Virus record (IMG/VR): IMGVR_UViG_3300028805_000045
Direction: 5' to 3' (one strand)
Length of the DNA stretch: 64,000 nucleotides
Source of the DNA: a virus
Lineage: Duplodnaviria > Heunggongvirae > Uroviricota > Caudoviricetes
Notes under the pieces: generated by a model
What the model saw: the letters and a program-made list of their open reading frames with translations, nothing else
What the model was told of the DNA's origin: nothing
Databases searched by the model: none
Shown: in pieces, positions 510 through 64,000 of the stretch
Numbering within the stretch: position 1 is the first letter of the stretch
How the letters are laid out: the number at the start of each line of letters is the position of its first letter
Made by a program: the position numbers and the translations under genes

Positions 510-535
510 AAAAGACCCCATATTAAGGGGTCTGC
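510..535 (-). terminator. Rho-independent terminator
   Basis: Minus-strand hairpin AGACCCC-TTAATAT-GGGGTCT followed by T6. Confidence 0.6.
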
Positions 536-1530
536 ATTAAGTCCTTCATTTCATCTACGAATAATTCTACCAAATCAGTTTGTGAAGGAACGGCTTGACT
601 TAATTTGAAATCTTCAGTTCCAAATACCTTTTTAATAATATCTCGCATAATATTTAGCCGCTGATCTTTTTCTTCATCAGTATTAGCTTTTTCTAAATAT
701 GTCATCCAAATAGTCTTTGCTTCTTCCATAACTTCTTGGAATGGACGAGATTTTACTTGCGCGAACTCGGTATTGTCAGTTACTTGTGCTCCATCTTTTT
801 CTACTGCCATATCAATAGCTTCACCTATTGCATCAACTAATTCTTTATATCCAAATTTAATTTTAGGAGCTAAATATTGATAACGAGAACCAGCAAATAC
901 TGTGGGAGTAGAACGTGTATATAAATACCTTTCCGTTGTACCGTCGTTATTCATTTGAACTTGAAGATAACCAATAATATCTACGATACTATTAATAATT
1001 GTATAAGCATTATTAGGTAAATCAGGAGCTACTGCGGTTATCGAATTTCCATCTTCGTCCTTCATTTCAGTTGGCTTGTCTTTACTATGAGCAATAAATA
1101 AAATACCAAATCCTAGCAAAGTAATTTCACGCCAACATTCAGAAAATTCATTTTTTACCATGCCCCAACCTTGTCCCCAGGGAATGTCTCGTAAATTATC
1201 TACGCTTTCACGCTGACAAATATATTGTTCACATAGCTGCCAAGCAATTGAAGCGGTATCTACAACGATACTATCATACATTTCTTTTGCTTGTGGCTTT
1301 CTTAATTGGCTAAGTACTTTCTTGAAATCTGTCCATCGTAAAATTGGAACACCGCGTATACCAGCCAATGCGTTTGTACCTTGTTCAAAGTTAAGGAATA
1401 ATGCTCTGGGTAACTAAGAACCAAAAGTAGATTTTCCAGTTTTTGGCTATCCATAAATTAGTAAAAATTTTCCTTTTAAATCTCTTGAAATTTTTGAAGG
1501 TTCAAGAGAAAATATATCAATGTTCGCCAT
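523..1530 (-). CDS. Sak4/RecA-like AAA ATPase (phage recombination ATPase) with 2 in-frame TAG codons
   Basis: Start MANIDIFSLEP at 1530. One in-frame TAG interrupts the Walker A segment (LLIYG-TAG-PKTGKSTFGS-TAG-LPRALF). Joins ORF 523..1368. Stop is TAA. Confidence 0.7.
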
Positions 1531-1558
1531 ATTTTACACCTCCTGGAAGTTGAGAATA

Positions 1559-6217: not shown

Positions 6218-6262
6218 TTTTCTTATTTATTATATTATAACATAAATTTATGTAAAAGTCAA
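6218..6262 (-). promoter_or_regulatory. Promoter cassette copy
   Basis: TTGACT...TATAAT plus the ATATGTAAGAA-type leader. Confidence 0.5.
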
Positions 6263-7200
6263 TTAATTAACCATTTATCAGACATAATATCTTCTAAGCA
6301 TAATTTCTTTAATTGCGTATAAGGGATACGTTTTAATGGGATATTATGTTCTATTGCATAATTTGTTTTTATATCATCACATAATTTAGTATATTCAAAA
6401 TCATTTTTCCAACCAGGATTAAAATGCTGTTTCCCATCATATTCTAACAAAAATTCATTATTTATATAAAAATCATATCGTAAAACCCAATTTTTAGGAG
6501 ATTTACAATCTAAATATTTATGTTGAAATATAAAAGGAATATTGTTTTCATTTAAAATTTTTTTAATCAACTCTTCTCCTTTTGAAGAGGAAAAACAGCC
6601 ACATGAAATTGTGTCTCCTTGTAATAGACATTCAGAAGTTACTGTACATTTATTACCACAATCACATTGACAAAGCCATAAACGCTTACCATGTTTATTA
6701 GAACCAATATGCTCTAATGCAATTAATTTTCCAAATCGTTGGCCCGTTAAATCTTTTCCATTAATCATAGCTGCTTTTTCTTTTTGTAAACATCCACAAC
6801 TTTGTACATGCCCAGATTTTAATTGAAATGATGTAGCATATGCAATTTGTCCGCAATCACATAAACATTTCCATAGAATTTTTTTATCACTATTTCTACT
6901 TCCATCATCTTCTAATACAAGTAAACGATTAAATTTTTGTCCTTCTAAATGGGTATGATTATTCTTTTTTAATTGTGATAATTTATAACAACCACAAGAA
7001 ATTGTGTGTCCTTGACGAATAGATAATCCACTGACACTAAAAATTTTTCCACAATCACATTGACATTTCCAATATGCATGAGGAGCTGTAATGTGATGTA
7101 TTTTTTTATATTCTTTATCTTCTTCTATCACTGTTATATGGCTTTCTGGAACACCATGTTCTTTCATAACCCAACCAGTCATATCTATTTTTTTACCCAT
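6259..7200 (-). CDS. Multi-Zn-finger nuclease-like protein (homing-endonuclease-like, possible PD-(D/E)XK C-terminal domain)
   Basis: 313 aa with three CQCDCG...SCGC zinc-finger repeats. The C-terminal RYDFYI...LLEYDGKQH resembles Vsr/DUF559-type nuclease cores. Sits between the two topoisomerase subunit genes. Confidence 0.45.
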   Translation of the reverse strand: MGKKIDMTGWVMKEHGVPESHITVIEEDKEYKKIHHITAPHAYWKCQCDCGKIFSVSGLSIRQGHTISCGCYKLSQLKKNNHTHLEGQKFNRLLVLEDDGSRNSDKKILWKCLCDCGQIAYATSFQLKSGHVQSCGCLQKEKAAMINGKDLTGQRFGKLIALEHIGSNKHGKRLWLCQCDCGNKCTVTSECLLQGDTISCGCFSSSKGEELIKKILNENNIPFIFQHKYLDCKSPKNWVLRYDFYINNEFLLEYDGKQHFNPGWKNDFEYTKLCDDIKTNYAIEHNIPLKRIPYTQLKKLCLEDIMSDKWLIN

Positions 7201-9433: not shown

Positions 9434-9970
9434 TTAGTTGACTTCTAATTCTTCAAATATTAAATCTTTTGGCAAAAAGTTTCTACAAAGATAAAAACTT
9501 CCAAAGCTTACCCCTTTTTGAATTTCTTTTTTTTCTACATCTGTATAATAATTAATACGTTTATCAAAGATAAGAGCTTGGCAATCTTTCATAAAAGGAA
9601 AACGTTTTTGTCCTTGTAAAGAAGGAATTGGAAGTAATAAGGCATAAGGTTTATTTAATTCATATAATCGTTTAATAATATCATCTTTAATAGAAAATGG
9701 TGGATTAGAAATAATTACATCATAATATTCTTGTGGTTCATATTCAAAAAAATTATGATTCTCTTCATCATCAATATGCGAATAAATTACTTTATTTCCA
9801 TTTTCTTGTATTAATTTTACGTATTCGCTATCCTTTTTATCAAAAGGACACCATACAATATCAGTCTATTTAATATATTTTAAAATTGGTTTAACTGCAT
9901 AAGCAGGAGTATATACTTCATCTGAAGCTTTATCTGTCTTTGCGGTTAAATATCCTTTATTTAGTGCCAT
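9434..9970 (-). CDS. N6-adenine (Dam-like) DNA methyltransferase with 1 in-frame TAG
   Basis: Manual translation MALNKGYLTAK...KYIK-TAG-TDIVWCPFD...IISNPPFS..., including the NPPF catalytic motif IV. Stop is TAA at 9434. Absent from the ORF track because of the TAG at about 9866. Confidence 0.6.
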
Positions 9971-10692: not shown

Positions 10693-11109
10693 TTAATTCA
10701 TTCTCCATTCACTATCCGCAATATCAATCTTCATCCAATCTTCACTTTTAATGCCACCGCACAACCATTTTTCTTTTAGATTATAATAACATATAATTCT
10801 ATAAGTATCATTCATCTTTTCTTTATAAACTTCATATAATGGCAGCAATGTCCAATCTTTCTTCAATGAAGTAATTTTATCCCAAACGCTATTCATTGTC
10901 CGGTAGCCACGCTTCGTCATTTCTTCGCGCACATAATAGGCATAAGAAATGAAATGGTCATAATCGTAGTCAAGAACAAAATTTACAAGAATGTGATTTG
11001 GAGTTCCATTTTTTTGAATTGCGCCCGCAATTGCTGATAGCTCACGCCATTGTGCTACAAGTTGTTCTCGTGGGAGTGCCGAAATTAAAGAAGTATGCCA
11101 TAACCTCAT
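10693..11109 (-). CDS. denV: Pyrimidine-dimer DNA glycosylase (T4 endonuclease V, DenV-like)
   Basis: MRLWHTSLISALPREQLVAQWRELSAIAGAIQKNG aligns with the T4 endoV N-terminus [33 protein letters not shown]. Confidence 0.75.
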   Translation of the reverse strand: MRLWHTSLISALPREQLVAQWRELSAIAGAIQKNGTPNHILVNFVLDYDYDHFISYAYYVREEMTKRGYRTMNSVWDKITSLKKDWTLLPLYEVYKEKMNDTYRIICYYNLKEKWLCGGIKSEDWMKIDIADSEWRMN

Positions 11110-11330
11110 TAATCACTATCCTCCAAAAAATCTTCAGTATGTATATCAATATTACAATTTGCAAGTTTTTCTAAAGCAGTAGCAATTCTGGCTAAAGTTT
11201 CAATTTTTAATATCTCATGCATACTATCTTGCGATTTTTTAATAATAGCTTTTTTTAAGTCGTCATTAGTTTCAAGATACATTTCTGCAAAAGTTGTATC
11301 AATTTTATGTACCATTTCATACCAAGTCAT
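11109..11330 (-). CDS. Hypothetical protein
   Basis: 73-aa ORF that overlaps the downstream gene by ATGA. Confidence 0.4.
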   Translation of the reverse strand: MTWYEMVHKIDTTFAEMYLETNDDLKKAIIKKSQDSMHEILKIETLARIATALEKLANCNIDIHTEDFLEDSD

Positions 11331-13525: not shown

Positions 13526-14842
13526 TCAATCATCTATAGGATGAATTTTTGTGCGTAATCCACAGCACTTTGGTTTTCTATTAACTATTAAGTTCATAAT
13601 AATTCCAATGATCATAGCAAGGCTAACGCCGCTAAAAGAGAAAATACCAAAGTTTGCGGCAAGTCCACCAATACCAATTGTTAAAATTGAAGCAGCGACC
13701 ATTACATTACCAGTATTACTATAATCAATATTACTATTAAGTAATGTATTAAGTCCGCTAAAAGCAATATATCCATAAGCAATTAAACTAACTCCACCAA
13801 AGATACAAGATGGAATACTTTCAAAGAGCGCCATAAGTGGACGGAAGAATGAAGCAAGAATCATCATTCCTGCAGCGACAGCAATAACATATGTACTTCC
13901 AACTTTGCTTACAGCAGTACAACTGATGCTTTCACCATAACTTGTATTTGGTTGGCCACCAATAATTGTACCTATAAAAGAGGCAAAGCCATCACCAAGT
14001 AAAGTACGATGCAAACCAGGGGTTTTAATTAAATCAGTTCCTATTACTGAACTTAAACTCTTATGATCGCCCACATGTTCAATTAAAAGAACAAGTGAAG
14101 TTGGCACAAATAAAATAATAAGTTGTGGAATCCAAGCCCAGTCAAATTCAGTTATATTAGCATTTAAGAAGGCGAACTTAGGAGCTGAGAAAAGAGTTAA
14201 ATTTTCAAAAGCAGAAAAATTAATTAAATGAATACCAAATATTTCAAGAATTAAACATACTATATATCCAGCTGCTAATGCTACTAAAAAAGGAATTGTT
14301 TTTAAAAAGCCTTTTCCATATTTAGCTGTAATTGCAGTAACAAACATAACGAATAAAGCAACAATTACTCCTATAATATTATATTCACCATTTACTTGAA
14401 CATAAGTTGGAGCAAATTTAGCAAGATTGATACCAATTACCATAATGATTGAGCCAACTACAACTGGTGGCAATAATTTATTTAACCAATCTACTCCTGC
14501 ATGTTTAATTGCAATAGCTACTATACAATAAAGTAAAGCAACAATTGCTCCACCAATTATAATGGAAAGATAATTTCCGCCGCTTAGAGCAATTGCTCCC
14601 ATTACAGCAGAAACAGTTCCGCCCGCATTTGAAACAAACATAGGACTTTTAAAGCCAGTTAAAATCAAATATACTAATGTGCCTAATCCCGCGGCCGCCA
14701 TACCCGCGTCAAGCGGAGTACCGCAAATTGTTGAAATTAAAAGTGTTGCGGTTAAAACCGCAAATACCTGTTGAATTGGATATAAAATCCATTCTTTTAA
14801 AGTTTTAGGTTTATCCTAAATATTATAAATCAAATTACTCAT
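13526..14842 (-). CDS. Uracil/xanthine permease (NCS2 family nucleobase transporter) with 1 in-frame TAG near the N-terminus
   Basis: MSNLIYNI-TAG-DKPKTLKEWILYPIQQVFAVLTATLL joins ORF 13526..14701. About 12 predicted TM segments. Carries the NCS2 family-signature LIEHVGDHK...GQPNTSYGE. Confidence 0.7.
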
Positions 14843-15152
14843 TATTAGTATCTCCTATTTTTATTTTTGGTAAAAGAATAGCGGAAAATTCATGTAATTC
14901 TGGTATAGATACTACATATATTCTTTTATATTTACCTATCCATCCTCTTTTTTGTTCTTGTTCTTGTATTTGTTCTTGTCTAGGTGAAACAAATGGATTA
15001 ATAAGAATAGAGTTAATTATTTCCGCTGCAAATTGTGGAGTACAGTATAATATTCCTTCAGTATTATATGTATCCTAAATATAAGCATTTGCATCATGTA
15101 TTAATTCACTATTAAAATGAGAAAAAATGAAAGGAGGAAATTTATTGTTCAT
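14835..15152 (-). CDS. Hypothetical protein with 1 in-frame TAG
   Basis: Manual translation MNNKFPPFIFSHFNSELIHDANAYI-TAG-DTYNTEGILYCTPQFAAEII..., ending in TAA. Confidence 0.4.
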
Positions 15153-15744
15153 TTTTAAATTTCTCCTTTAGAATAGGAATGATTTCATCAAATGAATTGT
15201 GTAACATATGATCTTCCGTTGCCGCTAAAATCATTCCATACAACATCTGGTTGATACTAAAGCTACGACGCCAATCTTTTTCATTTAAATGATTTGTACG
15301 AATGTCAAAATAGTGAGCATAATTTTTTTTATTTAATTGATTATCAATGATAGCTTGCATTTCTTCAAACATTTCTTTATAATCAAAATTACCTTCATAT
15401 TCATGTTCTTCATAAATTTTATTAAGTTTATCAGCCATATATTTCCATCCATAAAGAACTCCCATTTCGCACATCGTACCAATAGCGGATTGTTCAGGAC
15501 ACAATACGGTATAATCACTATTCCAAAGACGCTCAATATCAGCTTCACAAATTTTTTCTGCCAAATGATTATTTTCTTCTTCTGTCATATTGGACTTATC
15601 ATTAATGGATTTATTCTAAACTGGACTATATACTTCACCAGGTATTCCTGCCGCCTTAAACTTATCATATTCTTCTTGGCGCGCAAGGTTTGAGCCATGC
15701 GTCATAATATCGCCGCCTAAGTATCCAAGAGGTCTCTTATTCAT
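15142..15744 (-). CDS. Hypothetical protein with 1 in-frame TAG
   Basis: MNKRPLGYLGGDIMTHGSNLARQEEYDKFKAAGIPGEVYSPV-TAG-NKSINDKSNMTEEENN joins ORF 15142..15588. Confidence 0.45.
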
Positions 15745-16332: not shown

Positions 16333-16360
16333 AAAAGAGGGAGACTTTTGTCTCCCTTAA
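16333..16360 (-). terminator. Rho-independent terminator
   Basis: Minus-strand hairpin AGGGAGAC-AAAA-GTCTCCCT followed by a T-rich run. Confidence 0.55.
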
Positions 16361-47689: not shown

Positions 47690-47730
47690 TTCAACATATT
47701 TATTATAGCATAATTTTAAATAAGAGTCAA
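47690..47730 (-). promoter_or_regulatory. Promoter cassette copy upstream of tRNA-Asn
   Basis: Motif match. Confidence 0.5.
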
Positions 47731-47733
47731 ATA

Positions 47734-48288
47734 TTAGGGCCACTCGCCTAATGGCTTACCAAGATTTGCACGCTCAACATTAGTATTATAGAAAACACCT
47801 TCTGTTGCTGGGCCAGTTAGAACTTCTTCTGCAATATCTTGATATAGAGTACTAATAATACCATGACAATCGTTTAGATTATCTGCGGCAAACTGCACTA
47901 CGCAATTATTAAATACGACGTAAGTTGTACCAATCCACTGATAACCTTCTTCAGCAGGACAAACAGAGTATGCATAAGCAGGATTACCTTTGAATGCAGT
48001 ATCAAATAGTTCAACCTTACTGGTAAAGGCGCGATTAGTTGGAGTTCCATCAATCATAATTTTTAGTTTAACATTGCCAAAACCTACTTCTTCTGGCAAA
48101 ATTTGCTGTAAAGCCGCGACTTTATCGCCGTTATTACAAGCAAGAACTACTGTTGGATGTTCGCCACTAAAATCAACATTGAAAGCAATTAGAGGATCTC
48201 CGTCAAATAGAGCTTCTAATTTTCTTACTGTAATCGTCCAAGGTGGTAGAATTTTTAATCTTACATTATTCATTTCAGTATACCTCAT
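47734..48288 (-). CDS. Hypothetical protein
   Basis: 184-aa ORF. Confidence 0.45.
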   Translation of the reverse strand: MRYTEMNNVRLKILPPWTITVRKLEALFDGDPLIAFNVDFSGEHPTVVLACNNGDKVAALQQILPEEVGFGNVKLKIMIDGTPTNRAFTSKVELFDTAFKGNPAYAYSVCPAEEGYQWIGTTYVVFNNCVVQFAADNLNDCHGIISTLYQDIAEEVLTGPATEGVFYNTNVERANLGKPLGEWP

Positions 48289-48299
48289 AAATTAGAATA

Positions 48300-50440: not shown

Positions 50441-50444
50441 CCGT

Positions 50445-50520
50445 TGGTCGCGGGCCTGGGAGTCGAACCCAGTCCTTGAGGCTTATGAGGCCCATGACTT
50501 AACCGCTTGTCCTGTCCGCG
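50445..50520 (-). tRNA. tRNA-Met (CAT), or Ile2
   Basis: Loop CTCATAA, T-arm CTGGG-TTCGACT-CCCAG. The acceptor has 1 mismatch. Fused to the promoter leader. Confidence 0.65.
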
Positions 50521-50524
50521 ATAC

Positions 50525-50573
50525 TCTCTCTTTCTTACATAATTATTATATCATAATTTTTGTTTTAAGTCAA
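50525..50573 (-). promoter_or_regulatory. Promoter cassette copy fused to tRNA-Met
   Basis: Minus-strand TTGACTTAAAACAAAAATTATGATATAATAATTATGTAAGAAAG. Confidence 0.55.
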
Positions 50574-50584
50574 ATAACTAGACT

Positions 50585-50625
50585 CGAAATTTCATGCTCT
50601 ACCTCTTGAGCTACTCACGCTATTG
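50585..50625 (-). pseudogene. 5' tRNA fragment (acceptor plus D-arm) abutting a promoter cassette
   Basis: GCGTGAG-TA-GCTC-AAGAGGTA-GAGC... is followed directly by the TTGACT -35 element. Confidence 0.35.
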
Positions 50626-50684
50626 CATAAGATGGGAGTTGAACCCACGACACTGAAAGTGTTGTTTGCTGTAAGAGTCTATAA

Positions 50685-50757
50685 TGCGCACTGCTGGACT
50701 CGAACCAACGACGTCTTGCTTGTAAGGCAAGCCTTCTCCCAACTGAAGTAAGCGCGC
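50685..50757 (-). tRNA. tRNA-Val (TAC)
   Basis: Acceptor GCGCGCT/AGTGCGC, stem CTTGC/GCAAG, loop CTTACAA. Confidence 0.7.
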
Positions 50758-50900
50758 ACGCGTGCAACATCCATATTACGGTCATGTTTCAACCTTTAAC
50801 GAGTTGATGCTGCCAGTATCTCGGGAAAGAGATCGGGTCATGACTCCCGTTTTTCAGATTTCTCCTACTTTGTCGTCTCCCAGTCATCCTCGCGACATTC

Positions 50901-50975
50901 TGGTACTCCACCAGGGAATCGAACCCTGAATCCACTGATTAAGAGTCAGTTGCATTACCATTGTGCTAGTGGAAT
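50901..50975 (-). tRNA. tRNA-Lys (CTT)
   Basis: Stem ACTGA/TCAGT, loop CTCTTAA, T-arm CAGGG-TTCGATT-CCCTG, CCA encoded. Confidence 0.75.
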
Positions 50976-51232
50976 ATAAATCTCACAATTTACCATTCCA
51001 TATGCCCTTATGTTCTGGTCGTAGGGAATTGGTGAGTTTCTACCCTACTGTTTCCTCCTCAACGGGCGAGGTGTCCGGCGTACTCTCTGGTGGCCGCGTT
51101 TCACCTTTTGGGAGTTGCCGCTCCCGCACTACTTGCGGCAACAAGTAGATTGGCATATAAAGACTTCTTGCGTTTAGGGACTCCAAGGCTTGCGCATCGC
51201 CGGTTTACAGTCCGTTCAGTCATTCGGACAAA

Positions 51233-51308
51233 TGGTGGAGCTAATGAGATTCGAACTCACTACTTCTTCCTTGCAAGGGAAGCACTCTACCAACTGAGTT
51301 ATAGCCCC
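51233..51308 (-). tRNA. tRNA-Ala (TGC) with a G3-U70 pair
   Basis: Acceptor GGGGCTA/TAGCTCC, loop CTTGCAA, CCA encoded. Confidence 0.8.
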
Positions 51309-51526
51309 ATTTTATAAATTATCATTCTTTTATTGTCAATTTGACCTGGATTATATTTACGAAGAAAGTTTCCAAACTCATAATCATAGAATAAATAATT
51401 ACAAGTAGGACAACGAAAAGAATAATAATCTCCATCACGGTCGAGGCGATTTGAAGTCTTAACTTCAGTTTTAGACTTTACAATTACATGTAGACATTGC
51501 GGGCACCGAAACGGATACATTTTCAT
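51299..51526 (-). CDS. Small Zn-ribbon protein
   Basis: 75 aa with CPQC...CPTC. Confidence 0.45.
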   Translation of the reverse strand: MKMYPFRCPQCLHVIVKSKTEVKTSNRLDRDGDYYSFRCPTCNYLFYDYEFGNFLRKYNPGQIDNKRMIIYKMGL

Positions 51527-51534
51527 TTCTTTCC

Positions 51535-51582
51535 CTTCTTTCTTACATATTTATTATATCATAATTTTTAAGAGAAGTCAAA
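51535..51582 (-). promoter_or_regulatory. Promoter cassette copy
   Basis: Motif match. Confidence 0.5.
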
Positions 51583-51587
51583 TTCTT

Positions 51588-51761
51588 ATTATTTTAATGT
51601 TTACAATTTCAACCCTGGTCAAGTCAAAACCAATATTACGAATATAATTAAAAACTTCTTTTTTTGAAGGTTTTTTAGAATAGAGAACTACAAAATCTCG
51701 GGTCATTTCTCCATATTTCAATGATACTATACACCGCCAGTTCTCTTTCTGCATTTTTCTT
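51588..51761 (-). CDS. Small hypothetical protein
   Basis: Manual 57-aa ORF MQKENWRCIVSLKYGEM... Confidence 0.3.
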
Positions 51762-51808
51762 CCCCTTTCTTACATAAAAATTATAACATAATTTTATTTT
51801 TAAGTCAA
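51760..51808 (-). promoter_or_regulatory. Promoter cassette copy
   Basis: Motif match. Confidence 0.5.
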
Positions 51809-51812
51809 ATAA

Positions 51813-52010
51813 TTATTTTTTTGAAGTTCGATAATCTTCACGAGAATGAATGGTGTTTTGATATTTACATTCGGGACAATAAATATATTGTTCATAATCC
51901 CATTGACAATGATTATTCTGAATATCACTATCTTCAAAAGTAAAAACGCATTCACAATTCTTACAAGTCATTTGGTAAGGAGCATGCCCATGTTTAATAA
52001 CTTTAATCAT
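51813..52010 (-). CDS. Small Zn-ribbon protein
   Basis: 65 aa with CKNC...CPEC. Confidence 0.45.
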   Translation of the reverse strand: MIKVIKHGHAPYQMTCKNCECVFTFEDSDIQNNHCQWDYEQYIYCPECKYQNTIHSREDYRTSKK

Positions 52011-52153
52011 CGTAACATTCTACCTCGATTCCCATCTGTTCACAAAAAGTACTTTCAACTTCATACCAGGTATCACGAGAAATATACTCTTCTTCCATTT
52101 CTTCAATAGTACGATCACAAAGGAAATCATCAAGATAATCAGGCATTTTCTCA
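52010..52153 (-). CDS. Small acidic hypothetical protein
   Basis: Manual 47-aa ORF MPDYLDDFLCDRTIEEMEEEY... that overlaps the next gene by ATGA. Confidence 0.3.
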
Positions 52154-52159
52154 TCCTCC

Positions 52160-52203
52160 CTCTTTACATAAAAATTATATCATAATTTTAGTACAAAGTC
52201 AAG
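52160..52203 (-). promoter_or_regulatory. Promoter cassette copy
   Basis: Motif match. Confidence 0.5.
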
Positions 52204-52214
52204 AAAAAATCCAT

Positions 52215-52650
52215 ACTAAATTTCAAGTAAATCGACTATATAAGATTGGGTGTCTTTAATCTCTCACTATCAATTTAGTATGGATAGTGCAATTAATATT
52301 CGCGTAATATCAATTGCGGCCGCATATCTCACAGTTGCCGCGACTGGCAATAGTGCTTATATCGAAAGCAATCCGAGCGGATTCTCGCGCCGTATTCTCC
52401 GCGCCCACTTGGTTAAGGTAGTCAGCTCCTTCCAACTTTCATTCTCGAAAAAGTTGGCCTACGTCGTAGTATTACTCCGGATTAATTTACATGGCTACGA
52501 GCTCATGGCGGTTATTAACGCAAACCAAGCCCCGGCGCTTACTTTATTCTCCGCTCCCCTCGCTAGCAGGTTCGCGGGCGGGATGAAATAAGAAAACCCT
52601 TAGTTGTAAAAAGTCCTATCGGGTTGCGCATTGTAAAGAGGCGTGATAGG
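52215..52650 (-). ncRNA. GC-enriched ORF-free segment, candidate structured RNA
   Basis: Begins with the 12-bp inverted repeat CCATACTAAATT...AATTTAGTATGG. The plus-strand ORF 52250..52591 is judged spurious. Confidence 0.25.
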
Positions 52651-52656
52651 CTCTTA

Positions 52657-52733
52657 CTGGTACTCCCTCTGGGATTCTAACCCAGGACACCGGACTTAGA
52701 AGGACCGTGCTCTATACAACTGAGCTAAGGGAG
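52657..52733 (-). tRNA. tRNA-Arg (TCT)
   Basis: Acceptor GCTCCCT/AGGGAGT, loop CTTCTAA, T-arm CTGGG-TTAGAAT-CCCAG, CCA encoded. Confidence 0.7.
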
Positions 52734-52773
52734 CATATAAAAGGGTTGATTACGGCTCAACCCAAGCCATCAA

Positions 52774-53189: not shown

Positions 53190-53234
53190 CTTTCTAACAA
53201 TATTATTATATCATAAAAAATTAAAAAAGTCAAA
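53190..53234 (-). promoter_or_regulatory. Promoter cassette copy
   Basis: Motif match. Confidence 0.5.
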
Positions 53235-53239
53235 TATTT

Positions 53240-53636
53240 ATTTCAACCCATCCATAAACACCTGGTTCCCATACATTATTTGCGATAGTATTTTCCCAAG
53301 TTTTTCCATTATGAGTTACTTTATCTCCAATCTAATATGGATTTGTGCTATCTGGCTATTCCCATTCAGGAATTACATTTTCATCTGGAATTAGTACTTT
53401 AGCCCATAGGCTTGGAGCAGAAAGTGGGTCCCAATTTGGTTGTGGTATATGTGTCTATAAACATTTGTATAAAATACCATTATATCGAACTCGTGTATCT
53501 TTTTCATAATTATCTTCATTTGCGTGCCACTCTGGAAATAATTGTACGGCTTCAATTGCATCAGCATCATCTAAAGAAATAGCGGCTTTTTCAATATAAG
53601 GGCGCAATTTACGAGCAAGTTCTATTAAGGTCATAG
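53240..53636 (-). CDS. Hypothetical protein with 3 in-frame TAG codons
   Basis: Manual ORF MTLIELARKLRPYIEKAAISLDDADA...KCL-TAG-THIPQPNWDPL... that overlaps the upstream gene by ATGA. Confidence 0.35.
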
Positions 53637-53637
53637 G

Positions 53638-53904
53638 TTACTCCACCCCCAATAAAATTTTTGCCGCGGTGAGTTCTTCTTGTAAATTAGCAATAGCTTT
53701 AGAATTTTCTTCATTCATTAATTGAATGTATTCGTCTTTAGTATATCCAGTATAATCATATTCAAACCCGTTAATTACATGTTCATCTATTTCTTTTTCA
53801 AAAGGAATAATGTTTTTTGCAGTAAAAACCATAGAATCAGTTATTTCAATTTCTTGAGGATATTCAAATGATTGAATTTTACCATAATTAATCATACTAA
53901 TCAC
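53638..53904 (-). CDS. Hypothetical protein
   Basis: 88-aa ORF. Confidence 0.4.
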   Translation of the reverse strand: MISMINYGKIQSFEYPQEIEITDSMVFTAKNIIPFEKEIDEHVINGFEYDYTGYTKDEYIQLMNEENSKAIANLQEELTAAKILLGVE

Positions 53905-53957
53905 CCCTCAAATTTTGCTTTCCATTTATTTATATTTGCAGTATAAATATCATTTTT

Positions 53958-55946
53958 CTAAGGAATATACATTAAATTCGCGCCAAAGGAATATTTAGAA
54001 TATGTAATTTCTCGATCGCATCCATAATAAAATGGCCCTGCGCTATCTTCACTTTCCCAAGTTCCGCCAATCACTACACAATTAGTTCCATTTAAATTTG
54101 CTTTAGACCAAAAGTTATCTCCTACTGGCAAAGCACTATTGGCAGAAGCACATTCAGCTGGCATAAATACCCAATCATACTTATCATTGCCATATCCCAT
54201 TGCAGAAACCCATGAATGCATAGTAGGAAGTTTAAATCCTACACTTTCATAATTATTATCTACAGTAGTATAGTTATAATTAAAGTTTTTACAAATATAT
54301 GGATATCCGCCTTCATCATTGCCTTGTCCATAAATATTGATTCCGCCAATAAAATGCCAAATGTTACCCCAAGGATTTTCTATGCCACGATAAGATATTG
54401 CTCTTTTTCCAGAAGTATCATAAGAAGTATATTCACCATTTATTTCAGAAATGGTTGTTTGGGCTACTCCGGTATTATTGCCAAGTGATGCGGTTGAACC
54501 TGTCAATGAAGCACAATTTGTATTATAAACAGCTGGAATATTTATTATTCCAGACTCTATTCCATTTTGAATATTTAATTGTCCAAATTCTACCATTTCT
54601 AACATTTGATTTGCGCTTTCAACTGCCATATTTGTTATATGCCATCCATTTCCTCGATTTTTTGCTAATTGTTCAGCATTAATTATTGTAAGACTACTAG
54701 TAGAATTACTACTAACTGGTTTAGCATTAGCAACTGATGAAAGCTTATCATTAGCAAAATCAATAGTTATAGTAGAAGTAGTATTATAATTATTATTGGA
54801 AAAATCATAAACACTTCCTTGATAAGCTGGTAATAATACATAATCAACTTCAACATTGTCTTCATTTATAAATAAAGGATGTACTTTAAAACCCGATTTT
54901 TTTTGAGTAGATAAAATTATATTTTCTTTTTTAATAATATTACCACTTTCAAGTCCGGTCATATTAATTGGGATTCTCTAGTAATAAAATTTTGGTTGAT
55001 ATACCATAACTTGTCCATTACTTCCATCATCAGCATAATTAGAATCTCCATAAAATGCGGTTATTGTTCCATCGTCTGTTACGTTACAACGCATACGTCC
55101 GCCATACATGGAATAAGAATCGAAATTAGCTCCTGCTGTTTTATTTTCTGCGTCCTATATTCTAGTAAAGGATTTATTTACATAGTCTATCTATAATCCT
55201 ATTGTTCCACTTATATTATATGTACCAGTATTAATAAGTGCCGCAATAATATCCTATTCTGAGGTTGAACCTGCAATTGGTTTACCATCTGGGCCAATAA
55301 TTATAATATTACCTGCGTCATCAATTGAGAAACTTCCAATTGTTCCGCCGCCAGTGGAAGGGATTTGTGCAATTTTATTTTCAAGTTCAGTTTTTATTGA
55401 AGTTATATATTCTTTGATAGCTTTTTGTGTCATTGAACCATCTTCATTGTTTCCTGAACTAGTATAATTTTTTTCTATATCATATGAAGTAGAGCTACCA
55501 TTTTTAGTAATGGTCGCACGTTTAATTTTGGCATTACTTGTATTAGCATCTGATATAGTTACATTTGCGGCAGTATTTTGAATTGCCGTAGATAATTCAG
55601 TATAATTGTCTGCCATTGTAGTTTCTAAAGAATCAATATCTGTCTGTACTGGAACTAATGCTTCTTGAATTTTATCTTCAACAATTTCATTAGTAAGAGC
55701 CGCGGCGGCAGACGTAAAATCTGTTTTTAAATTATCGAAGTCATCTGCAATTGCTTCTGCCCTTGTCTAAGCTTCTTGTGCGGCTTCATTTGCGGCTTGA
55801 GCGGCAGCATTAGCATCCTAAGCATCTTGTAGAATTGCAGCCACTTCATTGGCTTGCGCCATAGCAGCTTTAGCTTGTCGTACAAGTGTTTCGGTTTCTC
55901 CTGTAAATGACTTTTTTGAGGCTAAAATAATATCAATAATATCCAT
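53958..55946 (-). CDS. Tail fibre protein (N-terminal coiled coil, Ser/Thr/Asn/Gly-rich C-terminus) with about 8 in-frame TAG codons
   Basis: Hand-traced single frame from MDIIDIILASKK (SD AAGGAGG) joins ORFs 55254..55616 and 53958..54962 across TAGs. The stop is TAA. Confidence 0.5.
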
Positions 55947-56570: not shown

Positions 56571-57805
56571 TATTATTGTGGTTTATATATTGCTCTGACA
56601 TTGAAAGCAGAGTAACTGTTTGCATTAGAAGCACTTCTAGTGCCACTACACCAGCAACCACCAAAAATATTTCCACTATACCAATATGGCGTTCTATGAC
56701 TCCAAATAGTTTGTCCTTCAATTTTAGTATACTGAAAACCTGAATAAGTTTGATTAGTATATTCATATGGGGTTGGATCACTATAATAACCTACATTCGA
56801 ACTATAAGGAAAAAATATATAATCATTTTGTGCAGATGCAGATGTATTTATTATATTATAATGATATGTTACTTGTCCAGGAATGATGTCATTTGGAATC
56901 GTATGCTATTCAAGAATTGTATATCCTTGAAGTTCACTGGTACTAGCGGGAATGGTATTAGTAATAGCTTGCTTAAAAGAATGATTTGTTGATTTTTTAT
57001 CTATATAAAAATAAGAGTGCGCAAGGCAAGTACTAAATGGAGAAGTAAATAGTCCTTCAATACCATAATAATATAAAATATTATTAGCTTTAAAACAAGA
57101 TAAAAATCCGTTTTGTACAGCACTTTGGTTAGTACATCCAGTTGTATACTGAGTAATATAGCTATCTGTACTATTACTATTATTCCATTTATCAGTTCCT
57201 TGTTCTATTAAAAAAAGTAATTGTAAAGCACTATATACTTCTATAGACATAACTTCATAATTATTGCTAAGTCCAGTAATTGCATCATTAATTGTTTTTC
57301 CATTAGTATAATTGTAGTTATCAACTGTATTATACTTTATTTGTAATCCACTACTTGATTTATTATTACTGTTTAAATAATATTTAGAAATATATACTCC
57401 TGAACCAGGATGTAATTTAAATCCAGGATATTTTGAAGAAGGAGGCTTTCTATTTGCTATGTACATATAGTAATCCTAACCTTCTTTTATTGCTTTATAA
57501 TAAAACTTTGGTAAATAAACATAAAGATTGTTATTTGCATTATCAAGGTCATCTCTACTATTAACTCTAGTAATATTATTCTATTCATTAATATTATAAG
57601 TTAGCATTTTTTTCCATGGAGAAAAGTTTTTATATATAGTTGTATCATCAGCGTCACCGGCATTAACATAATTATTTGGATCCTAATTATTAGTATTGGA
57701 AGAATTGGGTAAAAGTTTAAAATAATTACTACTACTAGTATTCCATTTTATTCCAAATATACTTAATTCTTCTGTACTTAAAGTTGAAAATAAATTTAAA
57801 ATCAT
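56571..57805 (-). CDS. Tail-associated protein with about 4 in-frame TAG codons
   Basis: Hand-traced frame from MILNLFSTLST joins ORF 56906..57466 and ends ...AIYKPQ followed by TAA. Confidence 0.45.
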
Positions 57806-59572
57806 TAACTTACTTGAACTCCTTTTATCTAAACTATTGTTATGGGAATATTCTCAGTAGGAGGTTCTCCAAATGCTGTTGCAACAATAGTTGTTCCATT
57901 TGATCGTGTAAATTCTAACCCTGCAGAAACAATAGCGGTATGAACGCCTTCAGTAGCAGTACCTTGCGGGCCAATTATTAAAGTGTCAGTTGCGTCACTA
58001 TTAATTGTAATATTCTATGTATATATACCGTTAGTAGCATTCCAACCACTACTAGTTAATGTTTTATTATAACTTTTTATATTTGCAGCCTCTAAATCTT
58101 TACTTGCATGGCCTGTAACGTTTGCTTCAATTCCACCAGGAACTTTCATTAAACCAGTTGAAGGATTAAGAGTTGGAACTTTGGTGATATCATCCCATAC
58201 AACACCATATATAGTATTAGTAGAGCTGCCATCCGTTTCAGTAGTTCCTATACCGCCCGTGGTTGTTATTTTTGTACGACTTACTAATAATGGATAATCC
58301 CCATTATATCCACTCTTTTGCCTATAAACACGAAGTCCATAATTAATACCTGAATCATACTATGTAATTAGACGCCAGCATCCATGTGCTGTTGCACGAG
58401 CATTAGAAGCGATTATACTAGTACCACTTACTGCGCCATATACACTACATGTTGCGGCACTATCATATCTTAATGTAATAGACATGTTGTTATTAAACCA
58501 GTTCTATAATCTTGAGCCATTACTATGAATGATTGGATGATATGTAGTACCATTGTCTAATGATAACCAAGTACCATAGTCATGTGCGGCACTAGGGATT
58601 TTAACAGTAACTATATCTCCATCTATTGGTTCTATACCAGCATTATATTTCCAGGATGCAGGACGATAACGTGGGTTTGCTGAGGCACCTAAGTCTGATG
58701 CAGTAACACCAGTACCATCAGTTATTGTCGGAGAATTAATAGCTTTTGCAGAAAGTTGAATCGCGCCATTTAGATACTAAATATATGCTTTTTCTGTTGT
58801 TATATTTGTATTAAAAGCCAACTTACCAGTTAAACCAATTGCGCCCGCGGCGTATAATTTATAAGTATTCTATGTTGCATTTGTATCGCCGAGCTATAAA
58901 TTATTGTACTAATTAAAACGAGCAATTTCAGCACTCGCTTGCTAAATGACTATACTCGCACCACTCGCCCTATTTAAAAATAGTGTGCTACCGCTACTAA
59001 TTGTTAATGTCTTTCCCGCAGTATCTGGAGAAAGAGTAATATCAGCTCCAACGGCGCCAGTAACTTTTAAGCCGCGAGAAGCCATTGCACCTGTACCATT
59101 ACCCACAATAACACAATCAGCTGTAAAAGTTGTCGCCCCAGTGCCACCGCGTCCAACTCCTAATGTACCAGAAGTTAGCTTACTTGTTGATAAATTAGGA
59201 ATGTCATCTGCAGTTAAACTACGAAATGTTGGGGCGGCATTCGAGTCAGAGGTTCCTGCTGGCCCAGCGAGCACTGTATTATGGGTCTAAGCTACAAATG
59301 AAATAGTTGTATTTAATGAAGAGGTTTGAGCAGTATTTACACTAGACTAAAGTGGAGAGGCGGCCTGTACTCGTACACTAGTTACACCAGAATTACCCCA
59401 AAATATATTAGTGCCATTTGTTTTTAAAACCTATCCATTAGTTCCCGCCCCATAAACTGCTTCAGTATCAGAAGTAGAAGCAATTATTGTCTAAATTCGT
59501 GCTGATTCTGAAAGAATAGTATTAGTTACCTAAAGATTACCAGTAACCAATGTATCTTTTAACTAAGCCATA
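57805..59572 (-). CDS. Tail fibre protein with about 13 in-frame TAG codons
   Basis: Hand-traced frame from MA-TAG-LKDTLVTGNL joins ORF 58942..59274 and ends in TAA, overlapping the next start (TAATG). Confidence 0.45.
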
Positions 59573-59583: not shown

Positions 59584-61647
59584 TTACATTTCTATAAAAT
59601 CTTTGGCGATTATTTGACCGTCGCGTACAAAAGATACTTTTTGATTTATCCATGAGTTTGAATCTATAATTCGATTATAAAATTGTCCTTTTCGAGTTAT
59701 TTTAACTGGAGAAGGGGTCATTAATGGGGTGGAATTAATTGAAAATACTTTATTTTGATTATTAGTATCATTAGGTAAATCAGAATAACGATATGATATT
59801 ACAATCATTCCATAAGCAGCATTTTTAGCTTCATATGGTATTACTAATGTTTTTTCAGTAGCCTCACAAATTTTAGGAGAAGTAATACTACTCTATGTAA
59901 GAGTATCATTAAGTATTGACAATGATTGCAATGAAATTGTTTTTATTAAATTATCATTGTTATCATAAATTTCTAAATAACTTTGATAATAATAGTTTTT
60001 AACAAAATGAGTAGTGCTAACTTGACGATAATAGTTACCTGTCCTACTCCATTTTGAACTGGTGTATTGAGCATCTATAGGTATAATTGAAATAGCAGGA
60101 GAATGTATAATATATTCATTTGCTCCCTGAAAATAAAATTTATTATATTTTTTAGTATATTCTACGACAGATAAATACTTAGTTTTTTGACTTGGAGCAA
60201 TAGTGCCAACGACGGAATATTCTGTTACGATACCACTAGAACTAGTAATATCAGCAGTATCATTTACTTGATAAGATTGATTAAATTGAGTTCCTTGAGT
60301 ATTTTCATTCTATTCTATAAATTCAACCGCATGAATATTATTCAAATTATCTATTCTCATACTATTATTATACAACAATTTTATGTCATTGTCAAGTAAT
60401 GGAGTACAATAAATTCTGACATCACTTATATTGCCCACTTGATCAGTACTCTGTGGTTCATTTTGACTTGCCTTTGCTTCTCCTGAAATTACTAAAGGAG
60501 TATTATTTGCATATTTAATTGTATCTAATGAAAAAGTAACTTCCGTACTAGTTTTTTCTATTCCATCTATATAAATTTTAACGGAAGTTCCATCAAAGAC
60601 TCCAGTAAACATATGCCAACCATTTGTTAAACTAGTATGATCTATTGCGCTACGCGCTATTTTGTAACCACCTATATTTGTTAAATATACTGGGAATTGT
60701 ATTCCATATGTAGTGCCGCCATATTCAAAATTCCATCCTCCGCCTTGTGTACAAGAAATGGGATTTCCCCATGTAGTCCATTTTGTCCATAAGTTTACTG
60801 TCATCTATTCTTTAGGTAGCCAGTCTCCACTCTATCTTGGAGAAATTGCATACTATTCATTAGTAAAATTTGTAGAAGTTGAATATCGTGCGGTATTAGT
60901 ATCTGTTGTGCCGCCGATAATATTTAAGTAATTCCCATATCCACTTGCGTCAGAAACTCGCCCGTCCATAATAGATTCTTTAGTAAAAGTCCAATGAGCA
61001 ATTAATCCTTGTGATATTTCTTTTACTTCAAGTGGACTTAGACAATGATCATAAATGCGGACGTCATTTAATGAACAAGCTGGTTTATAGTTGTTATTTG
61101 TTCCCGGTACATCCCAATTAAATATAGATATTTTTGTAGCTATTGCATGATTTGTATAACTCTAAGTTAATTCTGATTTTCCGTCTACCCATAACTAGAA
61201 TTCTTTTTTAGTATTATCATATGTTAAAGCTAAATGATGCCATTCATTTTTTATATTAGTAGTACCATAATAAGTATAATATGTACGAGAGCTTCCATTT
61301 CCTGTACTGCAACATATACGATAATCATCCGTAGAAATCTATTTGACATTAATGCCAAATCCAGATTTATTTGCTGTAGAATGATTGCTGACTAATCCGT
61401 TAGCAGTATTCCCAACCGTTTCTGTAACTTTTGCCCAGCAACAAATAGATAAATCCTTATCGAGTAAAACAGTAGCATCTGAAGAAATATCTCCTGCAGT
61501 TTTTATATTGGGTCTACAATAACAGTTTCCAATTTTCCCTTCATTATTAATTATAATAGTAGAAGAATTAGAATTAATAAATTGTAAATTTGAACACCCT
61601 AAATTCCTTAAATCCCCATTTAAAGGAAGCCAAACCTGTAAACTCAT
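59584..61647 (-). CDS. Tail fibre or receptor-binding protein with a lectin/LamG-like domain and about 8 in-frame TAG codons
   Basis: Start MSLQVWLPLNGDL behind the SD AGGAGG. Joins ORFs 61339..61647, 60310..60804 and 59584..59808 across TAGs. Confidence 0.45.
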
Positions 61648-61717
61648 TTATTTTCCTCCTTTTACTCATATATATTAAAAATATGAGAGATATAAAATAT
61701 ATCTCTCATATTTATTA

Positions 61718-64000
61718 CTAAAATATAAAATCTAAACAGTTATCTGTTTCATTATATTCTATTGATACATGTTCATTTACTATATGAGTCTCTGCATGTA
61801 AAGTATGTGCATATAAATTTCCTTGTCCCATAATATAAGCGTTAGTAGTACCCCCAGCAGTAACTGCGACGTTAGCACTTGTAGGTTCATTCTGAGAGCC
61901 CATCAAATAATATTGAGTTGTAGTATCAGAAATTAATTTATAATCTACTTTTGTATTAGTATTAATCCAAGGAACGTTTACAAATGGCACTCCATTTATA
62001 TCTGTCTCAATTGCATAATAACGTCCCGGAGTGCTAGTTCTACTTTGAATTGCAGGAGGAGTGGTTGCGTAAGTACTATGAGAAGCTGTAATTTTTCCAG
62101 TTGTAGAATATAACGGATTAATTCCACCGAGTGTTGTTGAAGAGGCTTCATTTAGAGTTACATTACCTGATGATACTGATAATCCAGTTCCAAAACTTGC
62201 TACACCTAAAGCTGAAGCAGTAGCAGTAGGTAAATCTTCTGCTGTCGGTTTCGCCATTGCTTTAACCTTAACTGCAGAGCCATTTATCGTTAATATGGTT
62301 GCTTCCGCGCCCCATGATAAGGTCGGGACAGTGTTTGGAATTGTTGTATTCCCGGTATCTAATATGACTCTCCAGTCTTTTGCACTATTATTCACAACTG
62401 AACGGTGTAATAAATTTTCATTATTAGGAGACATAAAAATATCATGGAAGTATGTTGAACTCCAATAAACACGTATTGTCTAGATATTCGCTTTTGTTGT
62501 ATGAGAAGTATAATCCGCTGGATAACTCCATAATTTATAACTATTACTGGATCCCTCATAAGCATTCCCATCCGCAGAACCAACCGTTGGCTAACCCGAA
62601 TAATACTATAAACCACTTGTATTTTCTGTTGCGCTAGACGCGAGTAAATTTGCTTTAGTCGCTGTTGTAGCATTACCACTAAATGTTGTAGCAACAACAG
62701 TACCATTATCTTTAATAGTGAATAAATCTGTATATGAAGTACCACCATTAGTAGACTACTAGAATGTAAATACAGCAGTATTCGTTGTACTATCATCTGT
62801 GATTGTTATACGTTGTCTATATGTATCACTATTCCAATCTAAAATATTTGCGGTTGGAAATATTAAATTACCATTTATTGTTGTCGCGCCGTTTAAACGT
62901 GAAGCTCCTTTAACATCCAATACATAATTTGTTAAATCTGCATCACTATATTTGGAATTTAAACCTAAACGACTAAAGTATCCTGGAATGCTTGTGCCAC
63001 TAGAGGAAAGAAAGTAAAACCCATCAATATCTTGTTTTGCATAGATTCTGTCAACATTTCTTAAATATCCATTGTCATCTATACTTATTGAACTGGTTTG
63101 AATAGTTCTTCCGTTTGTCCCATTAAATCTCACAATTGCATTATTAGTAGAAGTTGTAGAAGAACTAGTCACATATCCTGAGTTATTATTAAACTCATTT
63201 AAATCAGTTGGGCGTCCAGATATATTTTCCCATGCTACACTTGTAGCACTACCAGCAGAAGTAGCATAAGGTACAGTAAAAGCACTACTAGTTTTCCCAC
63301 CGGCAGTAATAGTTACCTAATTGGCATTACTGGTGCTTGCCTAGATAGATGGATTATTTGCTAAATTGGTCGCGGTAGTAGCTGTATCAGCATTACCTTT
63401 AAAAGCTGCAGCGTATACATTCCCTTCAACTTCTAGCCATGCGGGAGAAGCACTAGTTCCACCTATAAGTTTTAACCCCGCGGGGTAACGATAACTATCC
63501 AAATCAGTATAAATTAAATGTACTGGTTGTGTTCCTGTATTTTCCTAAAATGTAATACGTGGATTTGTACTTGCTGCAGTCATTGTAGCTGTTGTTTCTC
63601 CGCCCAATACAATATTATGGAATGGGTTAGCAGTAGTACCAAGAGCAACAGTTTGATTACCTTTAATATCTCCAGTCATCGTTCCACCTGATAGAGGAAG
63701 CGCATACGAAGAATAATTGGTCGCGTTTAGAACAATACTGCCATTAATTTTTACATGATTATCATCTTTTGCTCTAAAACTTAGCCCCCAATAATTTGAT
63801 AAACAAATCCATTGACGTGTAACGGTAGAACCCCCACTAGTTTCCTCCACATCAAAGCCACCAAGTCCATACCAGCTAGCTCCATCAGAATTGTTGTCAT
63901 TATCTGAAGTAGTCCATTGTAATTTTCTCGCGGCTGAAGAATAAATTTTACCAGTCATATTGCCGCCTGCAAGTGGCAAGTAATCACCTAATGCTGCCTA
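61718..64000 (-). CDS. Tail fibre protein with a repeated LPLSGGTMTG motif; 5' end upstream of the window; multiple in-frame TAG codons
   Basis: ORFs 63545..63979, 62759..63172 and 61718..62434 join in one frame across TAGs. LPLAGGNMTG and LPLSGGTMTG are the conserved phage tail-fibre motif. Confidence 0.5.

Follow-up and report, generated by a model that had tools for sequence, protein, structure and literature searches.

Reassignment of the amber codon TAG to glutamine (genetic code 15) is known from several groups of phages whose hosts use the standard code. It was described in crAss-like phages (Yutin et al., 2021, PMC7886860), and proteomics proved that TAG is glutamine in these phages (Peters et al., 2022, PMC9523058). 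Borges et al. (10.1101/2021.08.26.457843) assigned code 15 to the Lak phages and described six further clades, including large phages of predicted Firmicutes hosts. In these clades the structural modules are recoded, the replication genes are recoded variably, and the code differs among close relatives. Suppressor tRNAs were found in ~40% of the genomes, synthetases were rare, and a model centred on the late genes was proposed (10.1101/2021.08.26.457843). The human gut phage phAss-1 (proposed Phassvirus, ~136 kb), which probably infects Clostridia, reads TAG as glutamine in 41 open reading frames (ORFs); it has three genes for a suppressor tRNA-CTA and lacks a dedicated synthetase (Babkin et al., 2023, PMC10607447). 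Annotation tools predict code 15 automatically, and coding capacity then increases from ~67% to 90% (PMC11210395). Here we analysed a 64 kb stretch of the IMG/VR virus record IMGVR_UViG_3300028805_000045 (hereafter the window; G+C 34%), in which almost every gene is located on the minus strand. An original prediction from this sequence had proposed that TAG is a sense codon throughout the window. Very probably, the window derives from the genome of a large tailed rumen phage whose TAG codons are decoded as glutamine. The data make a strong case that the phage uses code 15, in which TAG encodes glutamine and only TAA and TGA terminate. Related loci are referred to below by L numbers.

TAG as a sense codon

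When ORFs were called with TAA and TGA as the only stops, long minus-strand ORFs holding in-frame TAG were obtained, and 91 in-frame TAG codons lie within credible minus-strand genes. According to the Pfam matches, conserved domains cross these codons. The AAA_24 domain covers residues 22–217 of the Sak4-type ATPase (523–1530, minus strand), PIN_4 and PhoH cover residues 16–118 and 209–396 of the PIN-PhoH ATPase (16357–17601, minus), and CLP_protease covers residues 19–197 of the ClpP-family protease (17579–18214, minus). The Sak4-type gene has two TAG codons (1447–1449 and 1414–1416), one of which falls within the Walker A segment (LLIYG-X-PKTGKSTFGS-X-LPRALF), as had been predicted. The PIN-PhoH gene has two (17383–17385 and 16726–16728), and the ClpP gene has three (18155–18157, 18113–18115 and 17735–17737). 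The further examples named in the prediction are all present. The NCS2/Xan_ur permease (13526–14842, minus) has one TAG at codon 9 (14816–14818), and its N-terminus is kept in relatives. The N6-adenine methyltransferase-like protein (9434–9970, minus; one TAG at 9866–9868) shows an NPPF motif, and its Pfam matches are under the cut-off. The tail genes, described below, are also interrupted as stated.

Coding density gives the same result. Minus-strand ORF coverage, calculated greedily, is 0.654 under translation table 11 and 0.842 with TAG as sense; with TGA as sense instead, it increases only slightly, to 0.679. A control with TAA as sense (0.79) was dropped as invalid, because TAA is the main terminator and the ORFs consequently fuse. 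Past a table 11 'stop' at TAG the frame reads on for a median of 181 codons, compared with 6 codons past TGA and 16 codons past TAA (Mann–Whitney p=4e-5).

The most recoded gene outside the tail block encodes a 709-aa protein without a PHROG match (23253–25382, minus; 13 TAG codons). This protein is aligned to the relative L001 in a single alignment of 707 residues with 92.8% identity, across the 13 TAG codons of the window and 12 TAG codons of L001. Such alignments run in frame through the junctions, and no frameshift was found at them. Inside the tblastn alignments to related loci, the in-frame stops are 416 TAG, 12 TAA and 5 TGA. Relatives that were sampled independently share part of the TAG sites: in L001, TAG is found opposite 17 of the 25 aligned window TAG codons.

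These observations bear on the possibility that the TAG codons represent damage, i.e. a decaying prophage, pseudogenes, or errors of sequencing or assembly. What speaks for damage is just the fragmented look of the genes under table 11. The interruptions in the window genes are TAG alone, never TAA, TGA or a frameshift, the Pfam domains are intact, and the shared sites come from independent samples. Most of the related rumen contigs sampled are TAG-recoded as well, and one window protein has an identical match on contigs of two other public assemblies. The in-frame junctions and the TAG-only stops in relatives therefore exclude pseudogenes and sequencing errors, and the probability that damage explains the TAG codons is negligible.

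The termini of the genes were also inspected. The 95 ORFs terminate with TAA (67) or TGA (28), in agreement with the prediction that genes end with these two codons. Eighteen code-11 ORFs end at TAG, and 14 of them read on for at least 50 codons. Of the four short read-ons, one is the TAG-TAA tandem that closes the last tail-fibre gene, one extends the ORF by 19 codons and is supported by homologues, one concerns a spurious ORF over the suppressor tRNA, and one is an extension of 27 codons. No gene requires TAG as a terminator. Thus, TAG is a sense codon, and TAA and TGA are the sole terminators. The tandem belongs to a tail-fibre-like gene whose 5' end is beyond or near the window edge (61715–63979, minus; nine TAG codons). 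Its last TAG (61718–61720) directly precedes the TAA terminator, and the gene end reads F-I-F-TAG-TAA (61718–61723), so that a sense TAG abuts the terminator. Until the suppressor is made, the pair could just as well function as a tandem stop.

Table 11 thus mis-annotates the window and most of its rumen relatives, with coverage of ~65% versus 84% and with every tail gene fragmented. Because of this fragmentation, gene calling must use code 15.

Amino acid assigned to TAG

Homologues in the protein database mostly have Q at both PhoH TAG columns and at several tail-protein columns (83/120, 76/120 and 109/120). These counts are partly circular, since for some contigs the public databases contain proteins in which TAG was rendered as Q. 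In the entry P0119, for example, six codons that are TAG on the source contig (L118, 10001–11239) appear as Q. The counts were therefore set aside and replaced by tests at the DNA level, where the amino-acid assignment must be done. The flag 'translates_to_query: no' in the contig look-up is a symptom of the same database translations. In the DNA-level tests, tblastn was performed under table 11, so that Q in a subject is a true CAA or CAG codon.

Against L001, the window TAG codons face 17 TAG codons, 5 glutamines and 3 other residues. Conversely, the L001 TAG codons face 17 TAG codons, 9 glutamines and 2 other residues of the window. Both TAG codons of the PIN-PhoH gene face genuine CAA/CAG codons in L002–L004; in the same loci two of the ClpP TAG codons face glutamine and one faces serine. 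A protein with two CBM_5_12 domains (53230–53634, minus) has three TAG codons (53455–53457, 53356–53358 and 53332–53334), and the first two face glutamine in 27/35 and 26/35 relatives, respectively. Over all relatives, the codons facing window TAG codons are CAA (143), TAG (78), CAG (71) and GAA (56). As CAA is two mutations away from TAG, the excess of CAA is not a mere effect of mutational neighbourhood.

A likelihood test was performed using a substitution profile from the same tblastn alignments, with subjects of at most 85% identity and with equally weighted columns. In the 44 TAG columns glutamine is the best fit, and it is still the best after any one gene is left out. The runner-up is serine, 15.0 log-likelihood units behind, and lysine is ~16 to 23 units worse than glutamine. 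The reverse comparison gave a similar result. Of 313 informative TAG codons of relatives, 87 face window glutamine (background 2.9%), which corresponds to a ~ninefold enrichment, and 17 (5.4%) face window serine (background 6.9%). From these alignments we conclude with high confidence that TAG is most probably decoded as glutamine.

A tRNA with the anticodon CTA had also been predicted in the window. ARAGORN locates this amber suppressor tRNA (anticodon CUA, 90 nt) at 43958–44047 on the minus strand, and the Rfam tRNA model matches it with 52.1 bits. ARAGORN labels the gene 'tRNA-Pyl', a label that is based on the anticodon only. Pyrrolysine was rejected: the variable region is 20 nt long, whereas that of a pylT-type tRNA is very short, the D arm is normal, no Pyl gene is present among the annotated ORFs, and the TAG columns fit glutamine.

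Uneven use of TAG among the gene blocks

Followed in transcriptional order (64000 to 1), the minus-strand genes of the window form four blocks. The TAG share was defined as TAG/(TAG+CAA+CAG). The tail-gene block (63979–53230) is the most recoded, with 46 TAG codons and 85 CAA+CAG codons in the tail genes (share 0.35). The tRNA array of ~14 kb (52734–38436; ARAGORN and Rfam) follows, whose small ORFs, some of them conserved in relatives, hold 12 TAG and 53 CAA+CAG codons (share 0.18). The third block contains the RNA-repair and miscellaneous genes (39235–25454). Its 22 genes hold no TAG codon and 123 CAA+CAG codons (share 0.00). The fourth block, for replication, nucleotide metabolism and lysis according to the Pfam/PHROG annotations (25382–523), holds 33 TAG and 223 CAA+CAG codons (share 0.13), and 13 of the 33 TAG codons are located in the one gene for the 709-aa protein. 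The differences from the RNA-repair block are significant for both the tail genes (Fisher p=6e-16) and the replication block (Fisher p=2e-6). Recoding is thus concentrated in the tail/virion genes, and elsewhere there are genes compatible with the standard code. The RNA-repair block can be read with either the standard code or code 15. The original prediction of reassigned TAG throughout the window therefore applies to the tail, replication and tRNA-array blocks, and it does not extend to the TAG-free 14-kb RNA-repair block.

All of the tail-block genes are on the minus strand. In addition to the CBM_5_12 protein and the tail-fibre-like gene at the window edge, the block encodes a tail protein of PHROG 5302 (53901–55946; 7 TAG codons) and its paralogue with a weak match to the same family (56573–57805; 4 TAG codons). 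A further tail-fibre-like protein (57805–59571) uses 15 TAG codons versus 7 CAA/CAG codons, and a virion structural protein of PHROG 26670 (59584–61647) has 8 TAG codons. The replication block contains, besides the 709-aa protein, a metallophosphatase, an r1t-type holin, RNase H, a deoxynucleoside monophosphate kinase, an ATP-dependent ligase, ClpP, PIN-PhoH, a nucleoside deoxyribosyltransferase, the NCS2 permease, a pyrimidine-dimer glycosylase, GyrB, GyrA and the Sak4-type ATPase. The nucleoside 2-deoxyribosyltransferase-like protein (15142–15744, minus) has one TAG codon (15616–15618), and so does a 303-aa protein without a Pfam match (1559–2470, minus; TAG at 2333–2335). No terminase was found in the window.

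This distribution can be arranged into a possible sequence of events. The phage tRNA-CUA is the likely decoder of TAG. On entry, the TAG-free genes would be translatable by a naive host with the standard code. The TAG-rich late genes ('early' and 'late' being classes taken here from gene function alone) would yield full-length protein only once the suppressor accumulates. The recoding would then serve as a timer for the virion genes, as in the model of Borges et al.

Alternatively, the host itself may read TAG as an amino acid and the phage may merely match it, with no switch during infection. The presence of TAG in replication-type genes (Sak4, PhoH and ClpP), beyond the late genes, would be consistent with such a host. 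On the other hand, the phage brings its own tRNA-CUA, and a 22-gene block of 14 kb without TAG despite 123 glutamine codons fits a need for readability under the standard code. The nearest bacterial homologues of the permease are also in ordinary Clostridia metagenome-assembled genomes (MAGs), the genetic code of which was not examined. We consider a host that reads TAG as sense very unlikely and retain the switch from the standard code to code 15 as the preferred model.

Suppressor tRNA and the route to glutamine

The suppressor tRNA has a normal 7-nt anticodon loop (CUCUAAA), a type-I D stem of 4 bp, a standard T arm and an encoded CCA. At the acceptor end, an A1.C72 mismatch is followed by the pairs G2-C71 and G3-C70, and the discriminator is G73. 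The variable region of 20 nt forms a stem-loop. For comparison, the tRNA-Gln(UUG) of the phage (39425–39499) has A1-U72 and G73. An origin from the neighbouring tRNA-Tyr by one anticodon change, like that of supF, was considered and rejected, as no convincing similarity was found.

In the case of Escherichia coli, glutaminyl-tRNA synthetase (GlnRS) recognizes U35 together with the acceptor stem and base 73, and amber suppressors are readily glutaminylated (review by Giege and Eriani, 2023, PMC9976931). The amber tRNA-Ser supD was turned from serine to glutamine by changing the base pairs 1-72 and 3-70 (cited in PMC9976931). In the indirect route through glutamyl-tRNA synthetase (GluRS) and an amidotransferase, G1-C72 is an antideterminant (PMC9976931). 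The acceptor end of the phage suppressor is of the glutamine type, with no stable 1:72 pair, with G2-C71 and with G73, and the anticodon carries U35. These features lead us to expect that the host charges the tRNA-CUA with glutamine, directly by GlnRS or by the indirect route of GluRS and the amidotransferase. The combination of a long-armed scaffold with a glutamine-type acceptor end would therefore reconcile the serine-like arm with the glutamine signal in the proteins. The phage tRNA would resemble the engineered supD in being a long-armed amber suppressor with a glutamine-directing acceptor end, which is predicted here from the sequence. The differences are its natural origin in a phage genome, a D arm unlike that of tRNA-Ser, and an extra arm with a conserved loop of its own. 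A natural long-armed suppressor may thus represent a concrete route by which a phage borrows the glutamine charging of its host.

Several points weigh against the assignment of code 15 with glutamine. In the window, where all the large ORFs are accounted for, neither a release factor nor an aminoacyl-tRNA synthetase is encoded. The more distant loci that seem to use the standard code provide 7 columns only, in which the lead of glutamine is 0.6 units, and these columns are nearly uninformative. In the Protein Data Bank (PDB) homologues of ClpP and of the CBM domain, the residues at the TAG sites are E, R, S, T and V, not glutamine; these homologues do not help to assign the amino acid because the TAG codons fall in variable columns. 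The holin gene (21008–21244) has no TAG, although the lysis genes of other clades are preferentially recoded. Its lack of TAG counts little, since the gene has just one glutamine codon. The timing model and the charging route are, moreover, steps that we infer from gene content and tRNA features. Finally, the suppressor itself has tRNA-Ser features, namely the long variable arm and G73, and its nearest match among the window tRNAs is tRNA-Ser(UGA), with 64/90 identities.

The last point leads to the possibility that TAG is sense but is read as serine, or as tyrosine, leucine or another residue. The suppressor has a class-II-like long variable arm (20 nt with a stem-loop) and G73, like the E. 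coli supD amber tRNA-Ser, and it has G2-C71; tRNA-Ser(UGA) is the best pairwise match, serine is the runner-up in the likelihood test, and one ClpP TAG faces serine in L002–L004. The D arm of the suppressor is, however, of type I, and its 1:72 pair is broken, which is the change that moves an amber tRNA-Ser to glutamine identity (PMC9976931). In the protein alignments glutamine leads by 15 log-likelihood units, serine is not enriched at the TAG codons of relatives while glutamine is ~ninefold enriched, and CAA and CAG are the commonest codons facing the window TAG codons. A residue other than glutamine is therefore unlikely, and glutamine is used in the following.

Family of long-armed suppressor tRNAs

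An identical suppressor is located at the syntenic place of the tRNA array in L006 (IMG/VR 3300021400_000113, 166.7 kb, ~86% DNA identity). When exact matches to the D-arm and anticodon-arm sequences of the suppressor were sought, with any anticodon allowed, L006 was the sole hit. Using a pattern scan of rumen and gut metagenomes, 21 distinct members of the suppressor family were collected (the window, L006, L122 and L133–L175). The 1:72 position is a mismatch (A.C, U.U, C.U or C.A) in ~15 of them, a weak A-U/U-A pair in 6 and a G.U wobble in 1, and no member has G-C there. Only L122 departs from G2-C71, with a G-U wobble, and G73 is found in ~16 of the 21 distinct sequences. In the extra-arm stem, covariation is seen at the first pair (GC 10, UA 6, CG 1 and AU 1). 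The extra-arm loop is TTCTGAG; its conservation is no evidence, because the loop was included in the search pattern.

In the close relative L121 (IMGVR_UViG_3300021254_000037, ~11050–11316), at the place syntenic with 43958–44047, the suppressor gene is split by a group I intron of ~175 nt. The intron is inserted between the anticodon positions 35 and 36 (GGTCTCT / intron ending in G / AAAACC). It is matched by the Rfam model Intron_gpI with 48.4 bits (E 5.6e-11), just under the gathering score of 50 bits. ARAGORN does not call the L121 suppressor gene, and the window copy is intron-free.

No published description of a long-armed suppressor tRNA family was found in a limited literature search. 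We tentatively suggest, as a possibility that is more doubtful than the recoding, that these tRNAs form a previously undescribed suppressor family in which the extra arm might serve as a handle for a phage factor or as a shield against a host enzyme, and the intron as a gate. They would then constitute a new layer of control over code switching, and the L121 intron would tie the code switch to splicing. The suppressor family is a more original lead than the recoding itself.

Another tRNA-CUA, of 75 nt, was observed in other phage contigs of 55–148 kb. It shares the anticodon arm (CAGGTCTCTAAAACCTG), carries G73 and a G1.U72 wobble, and has no extra arm. The carriers are L007, L012, L016, L017, L021, L022, L026, L027 and ~20 further IMG/VR loci, mostly from the sample 3300045988. 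ARAGORN misses most of the copies.

Relatives, host and comparison with described phages

A megablast search of the window against 50,697 deposited phage records gave no DNA match, and a first scan of IMG/VR with a PhoH homologue found no relative. In cultured phages, PhoH is at most 33% identical, with the best matches in Lactococcus, Clostridium and Bacillus phages. Relatives are abundant in metagenomes, where PhoH and tail-protein homologues were found on contigs of 165–190 kb. The relatives have ~30 tRNAs, gyrase and the RNA-repair module. Their samples include the sheep rumen runs SRR873602 and SHIW14, and many of their IMG/VR contigs look like contigs of ruminant metagenomes, judged by the contig identifiers alone. 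The nearest bacterial homologues of the permease, with 36–40% identity, belong to Lachnospiraceae, Oscillospiraceae and other Clostridia MAGs from ruminants. This is a weak pointer to a host in Clostridia.

Most of the family's tail-region loci with a length of 12 kb or more show 25–55 points more ORF coverage when TAG is sense, and a few (L064, L074 and L081) seem to use the standard code. L002 and L118 were rejected as standard-code relatives, as their ClpP or PhoH genes hold in-frame TAG at lower density. The estimate of the frequency of TAG as a terminator in relatives was therefore unusable and was dropped.

The present case agrees with the published phages that read TAG as glutamine on every feature examined, and it is neither crAss-like nor Lak. 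With crAss-like phages it shares TAG as glutamine, a phage tRNA-CUA, and the concentration of TAG in structural genes beside standard-code-compatible blocks. It differs in its unrelated lineage and in the extra arm of its suppressor, which the 75-nt tRNA-CUA of the other IMG/VR phage contigs does not have. Regarding the relation to crAss-like phages, there was no megablast match and the PhoH identity was at most 33%; no direct search for crAss hallmark genes was made. The Lak phages (~540 kb, Prevotella host) differ in size, since the contigs with the same genes as the window have 165–190 kb, an indirect comparison through relatives. The original prediction had suggested a lineage and host apart from the crAss-like and Lak phages. 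The separate lineage was borne out, whereas the amino acid assignment turned out to be the same, namely glutamine under code 15.

With the Agate, Sapphire, Jade and Lak clades, the phage shares a large genome from gut or rumen, the recoding of several structural modules with replication genes recoded variably, a recoding density that varies among relatives, a suppressor tRNA, and the lack of a synthetase in the part seen here. The size, habitat and pattern of Agate, Sapphire and Jade are compatible with this phage. As differences from the clades of Borges et al., for which Firmicutes or Bacteroidetes hosts are predicted, the holin is TAG-free here and no release factor 2 (RF2) was seen in the window. 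Like phAss-1, the phage has TAG as glutamine and a suppressor tRNA-CTA, and no synthetase is encoded in the window. The differences are the habitat, human gut versus rumen, and the number of suppressor genes, three versus the one found here. The window has no similarity to the deposited phage records, among which the presence of phAss-1 itself is unconfirmed. The recoding phenomenon is already published (Borges 2022; Babkin 2023), and the window is a further example of it. Its rumen lineage, which probably infects Clostridia, is added to the phages with TAG as glutamine and shows the usual module-wise gradient.

tRNA array, RNA-repair genes and minor observations

The tRNA array (38436–52734, minus) contains ~32 tRNA genes for nearly all amino acids, of which ARAGORN detects 31, and Rfam adds 2. 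Structured RNAs are also located in the array on the minus strand. A full-length ROOL RNA (45678–46258; RF03087, 323 bits, model positions 1–574) is 93.6% identical to the L006 copy. A skipping-rope RNA (42836–42903; RF02924, 53.8 bits) and an abiF RNA motif (52614–52650; RF03085, 44.2 bits) were also found.

The RNA-repair block (25454–39235, minus) encodes an RNA-ligase-like protein (27090–28487), RlaP (32353–33246), a DUF2828/DUF7788 protein (33879–35423), a metallophosphatase with an AAA_33 kinase (36963–38065) and the peptidyl-tRNA hydrolase PTH2 (38798–39235), all without TAG. The block also includes SPFH, DUF5662 and formate/nitrite-transporter-like proteins. A cREC_REC cyclic-phosphate-processing receiver domain is encoded at 44790–45104, likewise without TAG. 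Judged from these annotations, a complete-looking RNA/tRNA repair kit would lie beside the tRNA array. An HNH_3 homing endonuclease (33158–33781, minus) is located between the DUF2828 and RlaP genes; it was annotated through the identical region in L192 and L193.

In the replication block, the gene at 6259–7200 (minus) encodes a 313-aa protein without a Pfam match. At least four paralogous copies or fragments are scattered in the relative L001, and the identity of the protein to its six L001 fragments is 36–47%. The gene may belong to a mobile or repeated gene family.

Three tRNAs of the array (minus strand) have A at the wobble position: Ser(ACU) at 39869–39959, Leu(AAG) at 39508–39581 and Arg(ACG) at 44423–44498. 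Of these, the Arg(ACG) type alone is usual in bacteria. The Ser(ACU) and Leu(AAG) tRNAs recur in L006 and L121.

Two further elements flank the suppressor gene. At 44050–44186 (minus), a tRNA-Tyr(GUA)-like gene (GGGCGAG…CTCGCCCACCA) has a long variable arm, A73 and an insertion of ~48 nt between the D arm and the anticodon arm. The gene is kept in L121 (10765–10893), where the Rfam tRNA model gives 29.7 bits. It is missed by ARAGORN and, in the window, also by Rfam at the gathering threshold. At 43873–43937 (minus), ARAGORN calls a 65-nt 'tRNA-Tyr(gta)' with 17% G+C and without a D arm. Both this element and the 10-bp inverted repeat that flanks it (TAGACCATTT…AAATGGTCTA, ~43860–43955) are retained in L121; there the Rfam tRNA model gives the element a sub-threshold 27 bits. 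The element may therefore be a real tRNA-like element and not a false positive.

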